64,000 bases of DNA from Escherichia coli. GTDB lineage: Bacteria; Pseudomonadota; Gammaproteobacteria; Enterobacterales; Enterobacteriaceae. The DNA is taken from NCBI RefSeq assembly GCF_003019035.1, contig NZ_CP027447.1. One strand, 5' to 3'. The notes beneath the pieces were generated by a model that saw only the letters and a list, made by a program, of their open reading frames with translations, was not told where the DNA came from and did not search any database. The first letter of the stretch is position 1. Each line of letters opens with the position of its first letter. Below are positions 27,356-33,904 of the stretch, in pieces. The translations under genes and the position numbers were made by a program.

Positions 27356-29125
27356 TCAGTTGCCGTTAACAATGCTGATAACGCTGCTGCGGGCCGGCGT
27401 GGTCAGCGTGGCCATGACTTCATCCAGTGCGGCTTCCGGTACGCCGTCCGGGTACTGTGCCGTTAACTGGCGGTAATGTTCCGGCGTCCAGGTAAGGCCG
27501 TCGGCGCTGAACTTATCGCGCAGGGCTTTCGCGGCCTCCACATGAGTCATGGGACGTTGTTCAGTGCGCGGTCTGCGTACATCAGAGGCCTGACCGCGCT
27601 TCGGTATACAGGCCGGAAGTGTGGCGTCATCAATATGTTTATACGGGTCAAGCCGCCCGCCGAACGGCAGCGCCTTCGCCTTGCGTGCGGCAGCTGCATC
27701 TGCGGCGTTGTCTGTACCGGTGACCAGCGCTTCGGTTTCTTTTGCCGCCGTCTGTGCCGGTGTTTCCGGCAGGGCTTTGTAACTTTCGCCAAATACCGCC
27801 GCGCCTTCAGCAAAGCCAAACTCGTTCTTTCTGACCTCTTCGACCAGGAAGAACGTCTCGTGGCCGTCCTCACCGGTCAGAACCACCTGTGCCACATCGC
27901 TGCGCCATGGGTTACGGGTAATCATCAGTTTTTCACCAACCAGTACGCCCGGTACCGTTGATACGTCAAATTCAGTGCCCCGGAACGAGACACGAAGTTT
28001 TGGCGTGACTTTGCGGAGTTCTGGTGTCGTCACAGCCAGTTCACGGCATACCTCAACGGAAGGCGCTTTTTTCAGCTGCTCAGCAGTAATCTTCAGCCAG
28101 ATATCCGTGCGGGTTTTACCGTGGCGGCTGTGAACAGCTGTTGCGTTAAAGTGGCTACGCCATTTCGCGGCCAGCGCGTTGAGTTCTTCCAGACTGTGAA
28201 CCGGCCGGAACTTCAGACCCGGCTCCAGCTTGCGTTCGATAATGTCACGCGCCTTTTCCACCTGTCCGGTGGCGCGGGCGTTATGCGGCTTGTGCGCTAT
28301 CAGGTCGATGCCCAGTGAGCGGCACATGTTTTTCGTCATACCCGCGGTGTTTGCCGAGCCGGGGTCGAGATAGAGTATTTTCGGCACGCCGTGCAGCACG
28401 TCTGCGCCGCCACGCTCCTGCATGGCGTTGATAAGCACAGAACACAGGTTCTCACCGGATTCCGCACCCGTCACATACTCAACGTAAATCCAGCCGCTGG
28501 CATGGTCGGTAATCTCGTAACTCCACACGCGGTCACTGGCGATACGGGCAAGGTTAGCGGGCTTGTTCTTGTAGAACTTCGCGCTGTCCATCACCTGCAG
28601 CCCTTTGTGTCCATTGCTCAGGTAGTAAAGCGTGCAGAGAGAGGCATCAATCTGCCAGACATGATTGGGATGCAGACTGGCCACTTCGGTATGCGGCGCA
28701 GGGGCATCCAGTTGTTCCGGGTGCAGGCCATAGTTACGCAGGGCACGGCTGATAGCATCTTCGGACAACGGGAAAAACTCACCGGTGGTTTCATCTGTTC
28801 TGCCTGCGGAGATAAAGCCGTTAGCCCGCAGGGTTTCCACTGCATCTGCGATGGAATAGAGACGCTTACCGTTCTTGCGGGTGGCCTCACGTAGTGTGGC
28901 AGATATCAGCGCGGCTTCGTCGCGGGTCAGGGCGCTGCGCCCGGCATCGGCGCGTTTTTTGCGTTTATCAGTCACAGAGACCTCCTTCAGCCTGCGCAGC
29001 AGAGTGGCGCGGGACATGCCAAGTTCAGCACAGGCGGCGTCATATATTGCACCACGTTTACCATGCCCCGCGTCACGTGCCGCGCGGGCGACATAAACCA
29101 GTCGTTCAGTCAGGGCAGCATTCAT
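27356..29125 (-). CDS. Mu-type DDE transposase (589 aa)
   Basis: It has an N-terminal HTH and an rve-like core (HPNHVWQIDASLCTLYY..., LDPGSANTAG). Its position upstream of the MuB-like gene fits. Confidence 0.9.
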   Translation of the reverse strand: MNAALTERLVYVARAARDAGHGKRGAIYDAACAELGMSRATLLRRLKEVSVTDKRKKRADAGRSALTRDEAALISATLREATRKNGKRLYSIADAVETLRANGFISAGRTDETTGEFFPLSEDAISRALRNYGLHPEQLDAPAPHTEVASLHPNHVWQIDASLCTLYYLSNGHKGLQVMDSAKFYKNKPANLARIASDRVWSYEITDHASGWIYVEYVTGAESGENLCSVLINAMQERGGADVLHGVPKILYLDPGSANTAGMTKNMCRSLGIDLIAHKPHNARATGQVEKARDIIERKLEPGLKFRPVHSLEELNALAAKWRSHFNATAVHSRHGKTRTDIWLKITAEQLKKAPSVEVCRELAVTTPELRKVTPKLRVSFRGTEFDVSTVPGVLVGEKLMITRNPWRSDVAQVVLTGEDGHETFFLVEEVRKNEFGFAEGAAVFGESYKALPETPAQTAAKETEALVTGTDNAADAAAARKAKALPFGGRLDPYKHIDDATLPACIPKRGQASDVRRPRTEQRPMTHVEAAKALRDKFSADGLTWTPEHYRQLTAQYPDGVPEAALDEVMATLTTPARSSVISIVNGN

Positions 29126-30382: not shown

Positions 30383-30693
30383 ATATGTGATAACCTGTTG
30401 CATATGTGGAAAATTTATGCCGCATTTGACGTGGGTTTTAATCCCAGTTTTACGGCAATTTCATGGGCTTTGCCGTAACGAGCTTTGGTCTGTCCATTGA
30501 GAACACGATAGACCTCATTGCGGCTGTAGCCGTGTTCTTCGGCCCAGCGGGTAAACGTGATACCACGCTGACGGAAGAGATTTTTAACTTGTTCGGAAGT
30601 CATTGTTGTCTCCTTTGTTGATGCAATGATGTTTGTTTTATATGTGATAGATTATGTGAACTATTGTTCTCATTGTCAATGAGGTTTATGTGA
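30383..30693. promoter_or_regulatory. five copies of WTATGTGR (candidate repressor/Ner operators)
   Basis: ATATGTGA at 30383 and 30640, ATATGTGG at 30402, TTATGTGA at 30652 and 30686. All five read the same way on the + strand, and the last overlaps the repressor GTG start. Confidence 0.5.
30415..30603 (-). CDS. Ner/Cro-like small HTH regulator, first gene of the early operon
   Basis: 62 aa (ITFTRWAEEHGYSRNEVYRVLNGQTKARYGKAHEIAVKLGLK), divergent from the repressor gene. Confidence 0.7.
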   Translation of the reverse strand: MTSEQVKNLFRQRGITFTRWAEEHGYSRNEVYRVLNGQTKARYGKAHEIAVKLGLKPTSNAA

Positions 30694-31115
30694 ATTTTGA
30701 TTCTCTTTGCGCGTCGCGGTTCAAAGCTGAGCGTTCGCGGTTATCACTCAAGCAGGCTGAAGTAGCAGCCCTTTGTGGCGTTTCAAGAGAAATGTGGGGG
30801 AAATATGAACGAGGGGTTGCTGTTCCCGGAGGTGAGTTACTTGCAGCCTTTGCAAGAATTGGGGCCAATGTACAGTTCATTCTTACCGGGGAGTCATCAG
30901 GTATAACTTTATCACGTGATGAAATGGAGTTACTGCAGCACTACCGGCAAGCACCGTTACAGGTCAAAGGTTCAGTTTTGTCGGCTTTGACTACTGGCTC
31001 CTCCAGAGAACGGGCGGAACAGGTTATTCATGGAGATGTTCTGGGGAATGTTATCAAAGGTAACGTAACCATAGGAACAGGTGGAATAATGAACAAAAAT
31101 ACCAAGAGAAGATGA
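30690..31115 (+). CDS. XRE-family HTH protein, probable prophage repressor (c analogue)
   Basis: GTG start with GAGG upstream. HTH LSLKQAEVAALCGVSREMWGKYERG. Divergent from the early operon. The C-terminal tail is VIHGDVLGNVIKGNVTIGTGG. Confidence 0.75.
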   Translation: MNFDSLCASRFKAERSRLSLKQAEVAALCGVSREMWGKYERGVAVPGGELLAAFARIGANVQFILTGESSGITLSRDEMELLQHYRQAPLQVKGSVLSALTTGSSRERAEQVIHGDVLGNVIKGNVTIGTGGIMNKNTKRR

Positions 31116-32098
31116 GTAAAGAGAAGCAAACAGTTAACGGGGATGTGGGTAACGTTGTCAGCGGTGATGTTACCATTCATAACTATTCTGCTGACATACT
31201 TCCTTCTGCCCAGCAACCAATTTCGTTGCTGCAAAAACGCGATTTACACAGATTGATGGATGAATTGGTTGATCTGGGGGAAAGTAAGCGCGAGCTATGG
31301 ATGACGATCCACACGAAACTTAATACCAAAACAGTTAATGAAATGACTGCGGCTGATTATCATGGTGCGGTTGAGATCCTTCAGAGATATGCACAACAGA
31401 TCCAGAATATGAAGGACTGTAATCTTCTGGTCAGCAAAATAATGGCGCTTACTGACCCTGGGTATCGTCTTGACCGTGACAGATACTGTCTGAAGCATTT
31501 CGGTACAACCCATCTTAAAGGCCTGGACAAAGAGCAGTTGCAGGCTGTGTTTGGTTATTTTGATGATCTGCTGAATATTCGTGATGAGAGTAAAACTCTA
31601 TCACCTCCATCGGAAAGCGGTGCAAAATCAGTCGCAACTGTACCAACCAGAAGCCGGAAGCCTCATGTAGTAGTGTTGGGGGGAGCGTTAGTTCTTGTAG
31701 CAATATTTTTCGTGGGAATGATTGTGTTCGCTGGTAAATGGGGAAATGCTAAAGCAGTAGCTTCTACTGAAACCAGCGTTTTTAACATTAAAACCAACGA
31801 CAAAATAATAGAAGATTCCATCCCCGCACTGCGCAGCATGTTTCCAGGATTAAATAAGTACTCAGATGATTTCCATTCGGTTTCAAGCTACAAGCAAAAA
31901 ACGGGCTGGCATACCCTTAAATTTACTGTATCAGCAAAGGCATCCGTCCCCGAAAATTATAGTGTTAAGGGCAAGGTTTGTTACATTAACATAAACCCTG
32001 ATGGTAGTTATGCTCGGGTTTTGACTGCTCCATGTCGTTCACTGCTACTTGATCAGCAAAGCACTCCTGACAGTAAGTACCGTTTTATTCTTAAATAG
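31112..32098 (+). CDS. orphan 328-aa single-pass membrane protein coupled to the repressor gene
   Basis: ATGA overlap with the repressor stop. The N-terminus is VNGDVGNVVSGDVTIHNY, the TM segment is HVVVLGGALVLVAIFFVGMIVFAG, and about 110 aa follow it. The coding DNA is AT-rich. Confidence 0.7.
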   Translation: MSKEKQTVNGDVGNVVSGDVTIHNYSADILPSAQQPISLLQKRDLHRLMDELVDLGESKRELWMTIHTKLNTKTVNEMTAADYHGAVEILQRYAQQIQNMKDCNLLVSKIMALTDPGYRLDRDRYCLKHFGTTHLKGLDKEQLQAVFGYFDDLLNIRDESKTLSPPSESGAKSVATVPTRSRKPHVVVLGGALVLVAIFFVGMIVFAGKWGNAKAVASTETSVFNIKTNDKIIEDSIPALRSMFPGLNKYSDDFHSVSSYKQKTGWHTLKFTVSAKASVPENYSVKGKVCYININPDGSYARVLTAPCRSLLLDQQSTPDSKYRFILK

Positions 32099-32182
32099 AA
32101 AATAACAGCTGAATTACCATGGGAGCAGAAAAAAGACAAAGGCGATATCATGCTGCGTTCTAAAATTTTAATGTAAAAGGTG

Positions 32183-32290
32183 ATGAACATGGCAGGGATT
32201 CAGGTTATCGCAGGAAGTTTTCCTAAAGGGTGGGCAAGCATGGGGTTCGGTACCATCGTGTTTGCCACCAATCCATGGAACGATGGGTAA
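32183..32290 (+). CDS. possible 35-aa peptide ORF (weak call)
   Basis: MNMAGIQVIAGSFPKGWASMGFGTIVFATNPWNDG, with AAGG close upstream. It lies inside the region between the 328-aa gene and the terminator. Confidence 0.2.
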   Translation: MNMAGIQVIAGSFPKGWASMGFGTIVFATNPWNDG

Positions 32291-32338
32291 TGTCTGCATT
32301 TTCATAATCTGTAAGCCTTTTACAATTATTAAAAATAT

Positions 32339-32448
32339 GGCAGGCTAGTCTGGTCTCGCGAGACTGACTGAACCTCGGTCGGCTCACAGTGCATTCCTGT
32401 GGGACGATGGCCAGCCCGGCTTTCGGGTGCCGGGCTGGTCGTTCTTTC
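32339..32448 (+). ncRNA. candidate structured RNA / 3' UTR element ending in a terminator
   Basis: It contains the 12-nt palindrome GTCTCGCGAGAC, the hairpin CACAG-TGCATTC-CTGTG and a long terminal stem. No ORF on the + strand spans this stretch. The 5' end is a guess. Confidence 0.3.
32411..32448 (+). terminator. rho-independent terminator closing the repressor-side transcription unit
   Basis: CCAGCCCGG-CTTTCGGGTG-CCGGGCTGG followed by TCGTTCTTTC. The stem can be extended by GACGA/TCGTT. Confidence 0.6.
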
Positions 32449-32494
32449 ATGATGCGGCAGGGATAGTGGGATTTCTGTTAATGTGGTTTAGGGA

Positions 32495-32710
32495 TTATCC
32501 GGGGTGATTGTCTGCCTTTATCTGGTCCAGGGCATAAGTGATCCCTTCAGCAAAAACAGAAGTATCGAACTGCTTTTGTATTTCCTGAAAATGAACAGTG
32601 GCACGACAGATACTCAGTTCTCCGCGATGTAACCGGATAATATCTTCCAGAACATTGTTCACTGCTTCGGCACGGCGCTGATGTTCTGTTAACGTTAATC
32701 GGGGATTCAT
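32495..32710 (-). CDS. orphan 71-aa protein
   Basis: Strong SD (TAAGGAG, 6-nt spacer). Its ATG shares 2 nt with the ATG of the divergent 134-aa ORF. Confidence 0.55.
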   Translation of the reverse strand: MNPRLTLTEHQRRAEAVNNVLEDIIRLHRGELSICRATVHFQEIQKQFDTSVFAEGITYALDQIKADNHPG

Positions 32711-33113
32711 GATGCACTCCTTAAATGATGATTTTTATGTACTCACCGGCAAAATATTCTGCCGATTACTGAACACGCATCCGGCACCTCAGGTTTTGAT
32801 TTATTCTGGTTTTTTCGATATCCCGGACCAGGTTGATCACGACCAGAAAAAGTGCCGGTATTTTATTGATACGCTGATATGGCTTCGGGATAACAGCTAT
32901 ATTCGTTACTCTCAGTTGCTGGCTGTGGGAGCGGCTGATGTCGTCCTCACGGAAAAAACGCTCTGTCTGCTCAATGCCATGCCGACCTTTCTGCAGCCCC
33001 GGCCCGTACCATTTAAAGAGTTGCTTCTGGATGCAGTAAAAACCGGCGAAAATGCAGTCATCGCTGAATGCGTATCCCGGATTATGCGTTACGTGTTTAA
33101 TGAACGTAAGTGA
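32709..33113 (+). CDS. orphan 134-aa protein, possibly winged-helix-like
   Basis: Coding-like codon pattern with GGGGA upstream. The segment IDTLIWLRDNSYIRYSQ...VVLTEKTLCLLN loosely resembles a wHTH recognition helix and wing. That reading is an inference. Confidence 0.55.
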   Translation: MMHSLNDDFYVLTGKIFCRLLNTHPAPQVLIYSGFFDIPDQVDHDQKKCRYFIDTLIWLRDNSYIRYSQLLAVGAADVVLTEKTLCLLNAMPTFLQPRPVPFKELLLDAVKTGENAVIAECVSRIMRYVFNERK

Positions 33114-33832
33114 GGTTTATCTGCTGTCTGCATAATCCCGATAGCCAGTGCGAGGGGAAGTAATTCCGGGGAAACTCTTTCAAACAGCGATGCCCATTCT
33201 CCTCTCGCCATCACTCTGTCCAGCCCGCCCCCCAGCTGCATTTCAGCAATCTTCCTGATTTCCCGGAACAACGCCGCTTTGATCTCTTCATGCTCAGCTT
33301 TATTTTCCGGTGTCAGAATGTATTCGTCGAAGAACCGGGGAGGCTGGTTAACGGGGATTGTGTTTACCGGGATGTGTTCCTGTTTCCCGTACTTCGGGGA
33401 CGAACAACATTCTGTTGGCTGACCGGTGAGTTTACGTAACTCCTTCATGAGCAGCTCCTGATCGTAAACTGTCATCAGTGCCGCAATGGTGGCATGCAGT
33501 GCATCGGGCAGTATCCAGGGTTGCCGGCCCGTGGGGCATATAACATCCAGTAGCTCATTCGTCCGACAGATACGCTCCTCTCCGTATGACAACAGGCCCT
33601 GTCCCGTGTATTCCTCCAGCCTGATCACTGTGCCAGCCCGTGGCTTCTGCCAGGTCGTCAGATCATCGCCACTCATACGGCGCTCATTCTCCACGTCAGC
33701 AGCATCGACAATGACGCTGTTTCCGAGTTCCTGTTTCACCACTTCCTCTATCCGCGCCAGTACGTAACTTTTACCGCTGCCCACAGGACCGGACACGGTG
33801 ACAGTGATGACCGGATTCAGTGTATGTGTCAT
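33089..33832 (-). CDS. orphan 247-aa P-loop protein
   Basis: Walker A VSGPVGSGKSYVL at residues 13-25 and a possible Walker B SVIVDAAD. SD GAGGAG. Divergent from the lysis genes, and its 3' end overlaps the 134-aa ORF by 25 nt. Confidence 0.7.
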   Translation of the reverse strand: MTHTLNPVITVTVSGPVGSGKSYVLARIEEVVKQELGNSVIVDAADVENERRMSGDDLTTWQKPRAGTVIRLEEYTGQGLLSYGEERICRTNELLDVICPTGRQPWILPDALHATIAALMTVYDQELLMKELRKLTGQPTECCSSPKYGKQEHIPVNTIPVNQPPRFFDEYILTPENKAEHEEIKAALFREIRKIAEMQLGGGLDRVMARGEWASLFERVSPELLPLALAIGIMQTADKPHLRSLNT

Positions 33833-33904
33833 GTTGCATTCTCCTCTGTGAATAATTCATCGTTTATCCTGCACATCCCGTATCCCCGGCTCTCTTAACG
33901 CGCT

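Follow-up and report, generated by a model that had tools for sequence, protein, structure and literature searches.

In the SinR/SinI system of Bacillus subtilis (to which SlrR also belongs), the genes of the repressor SinR and its antagonist SinI are neighbours, and both proteins contain a homologous segment that serves the repressor for self-association; through it, the antagonist forms a mixed complex. RstC drives RstR, the repressor of CTXphi, into aggregates or foci, and Qtip, a small protein of phage VP882, reportedly inactivates an XRE-like repressor via aggregates or foci. Motifs present in the products of neighbouring genes are also found in amyloid signalling: the BASS1-10 motifs occur in NLR/Bell pairs (10.1101/2020.01.06.895854), and Bab/Agp (BASS11), an abortive infection system of Escherichia coli, is encoded in prophage regions (10.1101/2024.11.07.622273). 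Here we compare with these systems a pair of genes in a 64,000-nucleotide stretch of E. coli DNA (contig NZ_CP027447.1 of RefSeq assembly GCF_003019035.1; the whole stretch is called the window below). In this pair, the XRE-family repressor of a Mu-like transposable prophage carries at its C-terminus a motif that recurs at the N-terminus of a membrane-anchored protein, the product of the next gene, which we call the partner. The module is real and conserved, and it is apparently undescribed: no description of such a motif pairing between repressor and partner was found in open-access papers and bioRxiv.

The window pair resembles the amyloid pairs in that a motif of about 20 residues is C-terminal on one protein and N-terminal on the product of the adjacent gene, in that likeness is greater between the two copies of one pair than between those of different pairs, and in that Gly, Asn, Gln and Val abound in the motif, with a glycine after each of four short strands. 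It differs from them in that the C-terminal motif is borne by a DNA-binding repressor rather than by a pore-forming Bell/Bab domain, and the N-terminal motif by a small membrane-anchored protein rather than by an NLR/STAND or TPR sensor. Also unlike in the amyloid pairs, the repressor motif is followed by a short, mostly basic segment. With SinR/SinI, the window pair has in common an XRE-type helix-turn-helix (HTH) repressor and an adjacent gene whose product contains the repressor's C-terminal segment. However, the Sin segment is a helical hook, whereas the window motif is glycine-rich, non-helical and disordered in monomer models, and no Pfam Sin family match was found for the window pair. 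The partner, unlike SinI, is membrane-anchored and encoded downstream in the same operon.

A motif shared by a prophage repressor and its membrane-anchored neighbour

The repressor gene (positions 30690-31115, plus strand; 141 residues, GTG start, TGA stop at 31113-31115) and the partner gene (31112-32098, plus strand; 328 residues) overlap by the four bases ATGA (31112-31115), a stop/start arrangement for translational coupling. Both open reading frames and their overlap lie where a preliminary description of the window had placed them. The repressor motif, QVIHGDVLGNVIKGNVTIG (residues 111-129; 31020-31076), consists of four short β-like stretches, each followed by glycine. It matches the N-terminus of the partner, which opens with MSKEKQTVNGDVGNVVSGDVTIHNY and contains the motif KQTVNGDVGNVVSGDVTIHNY at residues 5-25 (31124-31186), nearly invariant in alignment A1. 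Local alignment of the two motifs gave a score of 58 (z = 8.3). When the partner N-terminus was shuffled 5000 times, the scores were 20.6 ± 4.5, with a maximum of 44, and none reached the observed one. The shared motif noticed in the preliminary description was therefore confirmed, with 11 identical residues out of 18 aligned. The alignment needs a one-residue gap, there being no residue between GDV and GNV in the partner; thus the motif written earlier as G-D-V-x-G-N-V stands, but not in an ungapped form.

At the nucleotide level, 33 of the 51 codon-aligned bases matched (65%), and the same codon was used for only 4 of the 11 identical residues, the synonymous sites having diverged. This indicated that the likeness is kept at the protein level, as the preliminary description had it, and it allowed us to rule out a recent duplication or gene conversion of the window pair in favour of conservation. 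No third copy of the motif was found within the 64-kb window. Together with the shuffles, this rules out chance or low complexity for this motif, which is rich in Gly, Asn and Val.

Further evidence was obtained from about 140 Mu-like and P2/186-like prophage loci, in nearly all of which the tail of an XRE protein matched the N-terminus of the next, membrane-anchored protein. These loci belong to Enterobacterales, to one Orbaceae genome and to Pseudomonas, for which a genome scan with alignment A5, using a narrow pattern, yielded six loci. In the first set of loci (the window and L001-L052), a repressor with a matching tail was present directly upstream of the partner in every case. A matching repressor was also found in all of L061, L064-066, L082, L083, L111, L147 and L148, with one gene inserted between repressor and partner in L083. 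The two genes are always on the same strand, separated by -4 nucleotides in all loci with the window's form of the motif and by +2 to +35 nucleotides in most others. Tail-bearing XRE repressors have, thus, a conserved neighbour throughout the first set and, with few exceptions, in the later ones. The motif does not belong to the low-complexity tails common on unrelated proteins that lack such a neighbour, the case named as refuting in the preliminary description.

The motif exists in about six classes. The class of the window (class A, GDVxGNV; tail QVIHGDVLGNVIKGNVTIG, partner KQTVNGDVGNVVSGDVTIH) was found in Mu-like prophages of E. coli, Salmonella, Serratia and Yersinia, and the NRVAGRDY class (tail SINVSGQGNRVAGRDYNENKK, partner MAVNSTGEQNRISGRDFNENNI) in P2/186-like prophages of Klebsiella, Enterobacter, Citrobacter and E. 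coli. The QxFxGxxSGQF class (tail SQIFNGDISGQFAGNQIINNG, partner RQEFNGTAQGQFSSRDIINIH) comes from Dickeya and Pectobacterium, while the AGRDIVN class (tail MQVFHQAPTGDIAGRDIVNNG, partner MTQEFHGQVGEVAGRDIVNHHH) and the VGQAV class (tail EQVFHGQVGQAVKVEGDLDQSGISF, partner KQEYNGAVGQAIQADQVQVDDQSVTI) were encountered in viral contigs. The Orbaceae genome and Pseudomonas contained further variants. When six classes were compared, the cognate assignment of tails to N-termini was the best of the 720 permutations. With 110 unique pairs, each tail cluster scored highest with an N-terminus of its own class; the mean score was 48.8 within pairs, 27.3 between tails of different classes and 22.1 between tails and non-cognate N-termini, and scores between classes lay at 22-30. 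As judged from these alignments, the tail and the partner motif have evolved in concert. Selection for likeness is required to account for this, because linkage ties the classes together but would not keep the copies alike.

In both protein families, no segment is better conserved than the motif. In class-A repressors, it is 95% identical, as compared with 47% for the HTH, and the tail is still 95% identical in relatives in which the HTH is only 34-36% identical; to go by the matching lengths of their longest contigs, the class-A partner seems to be kept in these relatives as well. The corresponding identities in the membrane protein are 94% (motif), 75% (Flk-like domain), 65% (periplasmic domain) and 31% (transmembrane helix). 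The repressors of alignment A8 (P0027-29, P0041, P0043, P0046, P0048 and P0058) have differing HTHs (34-47% identity) with a near-identical class-A tail, and probably differ, to go by their HTH sequences, in operator specificity. The HTH can thus be swapped under a retained tail, which suggests that the DNA-binding module and the tail-plus-partner module recombine independently.

In P0354, a natural fusion protein of 262 residues without a transmembrane helix, an XRE HTH is joined to one motif copy (ATVLHVNSKGPVVGFVHQGATVNQIHNHHH) and to Flk_N; this protein may stand for the ancestor of the pair or for a re-fusion of it. Its existence would fit a functionless relic, in which an HTH-motif-Flk_N ancestor was split and its linker duplicated into both halves, just as the Gly-, Asn- and Val-rich composition would fit chance low complexity. 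A relic would, however, be expected to decay, yet no part of either protein is more conserved than the motif, and the match has been kept through about six divergent classes while synonymous sites diverged. The shuffles exclude chance. We consider this explanation nearly refuted and extremely improbable. A search with a hidden Markov model among 1.84 billion representatives showed that the full-length phage-type Flk_N proteins inspected at their N-terminus all carried a motif of this kind, and that chromosomal (true) Flk proteins had no such N-terminal motif.

The two proteins and their prophage

The repressor matched Pfam HTH_31 (30.7 bits, cut-off 27; E = 4e-07) and HTH_3 (23.2 bits, cut-off 23), as well as PHROG families of transcriptional regulators and repressors. 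Its gene is divergent from a ner-like gene and the transposase early operon, in a prophage that is otherwise complete. Because of this position and of its HTH domain, we identify the XRE protein as the immunity repressor of the Mu-like prophage. No match to Peptidase_S24, the LexA/CI-type self-cleavage domain, was found in Pfam. In the AlphaFold2 monomer model (mfa73654368c1), the five-helix HTH DNA-binding domain (residues 3-66; 30696-30887, plus strand), also recognized with Pfam, had block-mean predicted local distance difference test (pLDDT) values of about 90-95 over residues 11-60. It is followed only by two helices (76-87 and 90-101) and the tail. The two-helix region (residues 76-101; 30915-30992, plus strand) reads DE.EL..YR.AP..VKAA.LAALT.G in most relatives (alignment A8). 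From residue 103 onwards the tail is disordered in the model, including the motif. After the motif comes a short end segment with a basic terminus, TGGIMNKNTKRR (31077-31112, plus strand). The preliminary description had the repressor ending in ...GTGG, which is incorrect, as nine further residues (IMNKNTKRR) follow. Lys or Arg ends most repressor tails in related loci, and the net charge of the NRVAGRDY class is modest.

A longer form of the repressor (153 residues) has been annotated in E. coli A24 and is present in cluster P0025. Its start is closed in the window, since positions 30654-30659 read ATG TGA, as compared with ATG AGA in A24. Most repressor homologs start with MNFDS..., and the GTG at 30690 is therefore probably the true start, the longer annotation in A24 and P0025 being probably an over-extension. 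On either side of this start are two direct repeats, TTATGTGAA(C/T)T.TTG.TTCTC.TTG, at 30652-30675 and 30686-30709 (79% identity). They overlap a strong promoter-like site for the divergent early operon (TTGACA-17-CATAAT; 30679-30651, minus strand), and could be operators.

The partner matched phrog_10002 (E = 2e-227), its N-terminal half also matched phrog_5825 and phrog_6521, and 24 homologs were found in Enterobacterales. In its AlphaFold2 monomer model, residues 1-29 are disordered, with a pLDDT of about 43 for the motif. They are followed by a confidently modelled cytoplasmic helical domain (residues 31-161; 31202-31594, plus strand), Flk-like according to precomputed Pfam tags (PF27202, Flk_N), and by a linker. 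Next comes a single transmembrane helix (residues 185-208; 31664-31735, plus strand), with the N-terminus inside (Kyte-Doolittle 19-residue maximum of 2.92; N-side flank of +3). The protein ends with a periplasmic α/β domain (residues 225-328; 31784-32095, plus strand) modelled with a pLDDT of more than 90. The single transmembrane helix agreed with the preliminary description, while the sizes had to be corrected to about 184 cytoplasmic residues (instead of about 190) and about 120 periplasmic ones (instead of about 110). Fold searches gave nothing convincing, and for the periplasmic domain Foldseek gave no significant match in the PDB. This domain is present in some family members only. It is missing from the classes in which the protein stops directly after the transmembrane helix, which we consider to be tail-anchored for this reason, and it recurs in P0242 behind another motif class. 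No Pfam family scored above cut-off with the partner, and no PADLOC family was matched, on which ground a known defence system was rejected.

The gene order of the prophage is one that we take to be like that of BcepMu. On the minus strand, leftward from the repressor, it comprises the ner/cro-like early regulator gene (30415-30603; phrog_925, E = 1e-32; HTH_31), a winged-helix regulator, a DUF3102 gene and a DDE transposase gene (27356-29125); in an annotated twin locus, this operon continues with genes for Gam and an ExeA-type ATPase. The repressor and partner genes, on the plus strand, are followed by a few genes of unknown function (32100-33900) and then by holin, transglycosylase and late genes. 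This intervening region contains a phrog_2266 gene (32709-33113, plus strand) and a gene for a 247-residue protein (33089-33832, minus strand; phrog_3787) with weak P-loop matches, including one to KAP NTPase; the A24 annotation of this protein is KAP family NTPase. The genes of 32100-33900 may be accessory genes, and none of them had a PADLOC match. No RNA was found in Rfam and tRNA scans of the window. E. coli A24 contains the same 1.9 kb with 99.9% identity, and, of 5426 complete E. coli genomes, 126 had at least 80% of this 1.9-kb module. Almost none of the isolated phages carried it.

Some of the related loci contain additional genes. In a P2/186-like arrangement (L002, 5086-5952; also L003 and L004), the repressor and an Flk_N protein are followed by a 288-residue protein with a weak BRCT match and by an integrase. 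In two Pseudomonas-type Mu-like loci (L082, 1600-3142, and L150, 935-2600), two motif-bearing membrane proteins succeed each other, a small CxxC protein and then an Flk_N protein, and the repressor of L150 itself carries two copies of the motif. The repressor of L082 and the adjacent protein have the rare variant RVAGHT(F/Y)NE in common.

Possible roles of the shared motif

We propose that the C-terminal motif of the repressor and the N-terminal motif of the partner bind each other directly by like-with-like β-strand pairing, so that a fraction of the repressor would be coupled to the inner membrane. A change in the state or clustering of the partner, sensed via its Flk-like or periplasmic domain, would then capture or aggregate the repressor by way of the shared motif, and this would shift the lysogeny-lysis switch in a phage whose repressor has no RecA-type self-cleavage domain. 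We estimate the probability of this proposal as a whole, with its mode of binding, its sensor-to-repressor direction and its effect on the switch, at about 0.45. Direct contact between the two motifs, in whichever direction the signal would go, appears probable on the basis of the sequence comparisons. The preliminary description had suggested such a physical interaction, with membrane tethering or sensing for the lysis-lysogeny switch, or exclusion, as possible roles, and its reading is borne out in part. Contact has strong but indirect support from the concerted evolution through about six classes and from the natural HTH-motif-Flk_N fusion, and a pairing of like with like is favoured because likeness, and not complementarity, is what such a pairing would be expected to leave. 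The disorder of the motif in both monomer models also counts for the proposal, as it is expected of segments that fold on binding.

The partners of different loci are 118-328 residues long, and their middle domain varies: it may be Flk_N, a small zinc-ribbon protein (L153 and L154) or, as in L057, something else. What stays constant is the N-terminal motif together with the membrane anchor. A contact of motif with motif is therefore favoured over a contact of the motif with a domain of the other protein.

Membrane anchoring of every partner can also be accounted for if the two proteins act in the reverse direction, the repressor tail keeping the membrane protein inactive as an XRE antitoxin does with its toxin. 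Loss or titration of the repressor (upon induction, prophage loss or superinfection) would then free the membrane protein, which would drive exclusion, abortive infection or lysis timing. The HTH-first gene order and the ATGA overlap resemble those of type II toxin-antitoxin operons, the weak NCBIfam matches of the HTH are to antitoxins, RstR and DicA, and genes co-transcribed with a repressor often encode exclusion systems, as in lambda cI-rexA-rexB. Toxin-antitoxin pairs, however, are not known to have sequence motifs in common, PADLOC found no known defence or toxin family in the membrane protein, and the variable middle and periplasmic domains look more like inputs than like a conserved killing module. 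In addition, the known amyloid pairs have the C-terminal motif on the effector and the N-terminal one on the sensor, and it is by this analogy that we would assign the output to the repressor and the sensing to the membrane protein. The reverse direction is a serious rival, but in view of these points we regard it as unlikely.

A different possibility is that the motifs do not bind each other but are both recognized by a third factor (a host protease, an adaptor, a chaperone or another phage protein), leading to joint degradation or handling of the two proteins. Both motifs are at exposed, disordered termini, and Mu-type repressor tails are known as protease-control elements, as with Mu Rep and ClpXP. 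A single host factor would, however, fix one motif per host, whereas at least two unrelated classes (GDVxGNV and NRVAGRDY) occur in E. coli and its near relatives and a third in Dickeya and Pectobacterium. The copies also change together from class to class, so that the factor would have to co-vary with them, and no third gene that bears the motif or is specific to its class was seen in the window. The coexistence of different classes in the same host group, and their change in step, make a common third factor less likely, and we think it quite improbable.

The proposed direct pairing of the two motifs could take two forms. In one, the partner motif would mimic a self-association element of the repressor, as SinI does with SinR. 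In the other, pairing would involve amyloid-like templating, as in the Bab/Agp and NLR/Bell BASS pairs. By analogy with these, the shared motif would be a true amyloid or prion-like element: the partner would cluster upon a membrane or envelope cue, its N-terminal motifs would take on a cross-β fold, and this would template repressor tails into an inactive aggregate, so that templating itself would flip the lysogeny switch. We consider this specific form doubtful.

Several observations weigh against our proposal. In the lysogen, the two proteins are produced jointly, an unusual situation for an antirepressor, so that a trigger has to be assumed, and no PADLOC or Pfam family gives the partner a function. 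The charged GRD of the NRVAGRDY class fits poorly in a simple in-register parallel stack. The members of a pair differ in L152 and L154, and fine-scale matching within the NRVAGRDY class is thus not general. The GHT match in L082, where 24 of 27 core bases are identical, may represent a recent conversion. The sole clear exception to the pairing is a Mu-like locus of Burkholderiaceae (L053, 3001-4385). There, the repressor has a motif-like tail (IRIDGTVHGHVVQGDVVQHG), but the DUF4236 membrane protein encoded after it lacks a matching N-terminus.

Relation to described regulators

In the partner, the homology to the cytoplasmic domain of Flk (Fluke/RflH), a regulator acting on the flagellar type III secretion switch, extends over residues 19-147 (NCBIfam PRK10715, E = 3.5e-12), with PF27202 (Flk_N) tags on homologs. 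The short forms of the partner are also like Flk in having a C-terminal tail anchor. The score for the Flk equivalog was, however, 46 bits for a cut-off of 353 bits, and the partner has one Flk_N unit, as compared with two in the chromosomal Flk proteins (about 330 residues). Unlike Flk, whose gene is chromosomal and which acts on the flagellar export gate, the partner has the N-terminal motif, is prophage-borne beside a repressor and is common in Klebsiella. One partner sequence by itself was present on 754 contigs. The NRVAGRDY class is most abundant in Klebsiella, which is non-flagellate, and this makes a connection with Flk's flagellar role unlikely. Score, architecture and host range led us to reject the partner as a real Flk with a flagellar role.

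RexA and RexB of phage lambda are reported to assist the transition from lysogeny to lysis, and RexA to affect the switch (10.1101/2021.04.19.439022). As in the window, the lysogen expresses genes that lie directly downstream of the repressor, and a membrane protein (RexB) is among their products. The two systems are unrelated in sequence and in domains, and, unlike the window pair, CI and the Rex proteins are not known to have a motif in common. The antirepressors RstC and Qtip differ from the partner in that they are not known to share a motif with the repressor, have no membrane anchor and are not transcribed together with the repressor in the lysogen.

In many temperate phages, the XRE repressor is small and has no RecA-dependent cleavage domain. 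The matched motif ties such repressors to a membrane-anchored partner of the same operon, in Mu-like and P2/186-like prophages that are very common in E. coli, Klebsiella and Pseudomonas. If the proposed contact is real, it would either give the lysogeny switch a new route of input or amount to a new membrane effector under repressor control. The pair would also provide a compact case of like-with-like motif recognition, and the motif classes may serve as specificity codes that prevent cross-talk between prophages in the same cell. Should the motif prove to be amyloid-like, amyloid signalling would extend from the control of cell death to gene regulation. The pair would then be the first amyloid-signalling pair to have a transcription factor, instead of a cell-death effector, as its output, and it would be widespread in prophages of these three bacteria. 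Among the systems compared here, the module is closest in form to the amyloid-signalling gene pairs and in logic to SinI/SinR.

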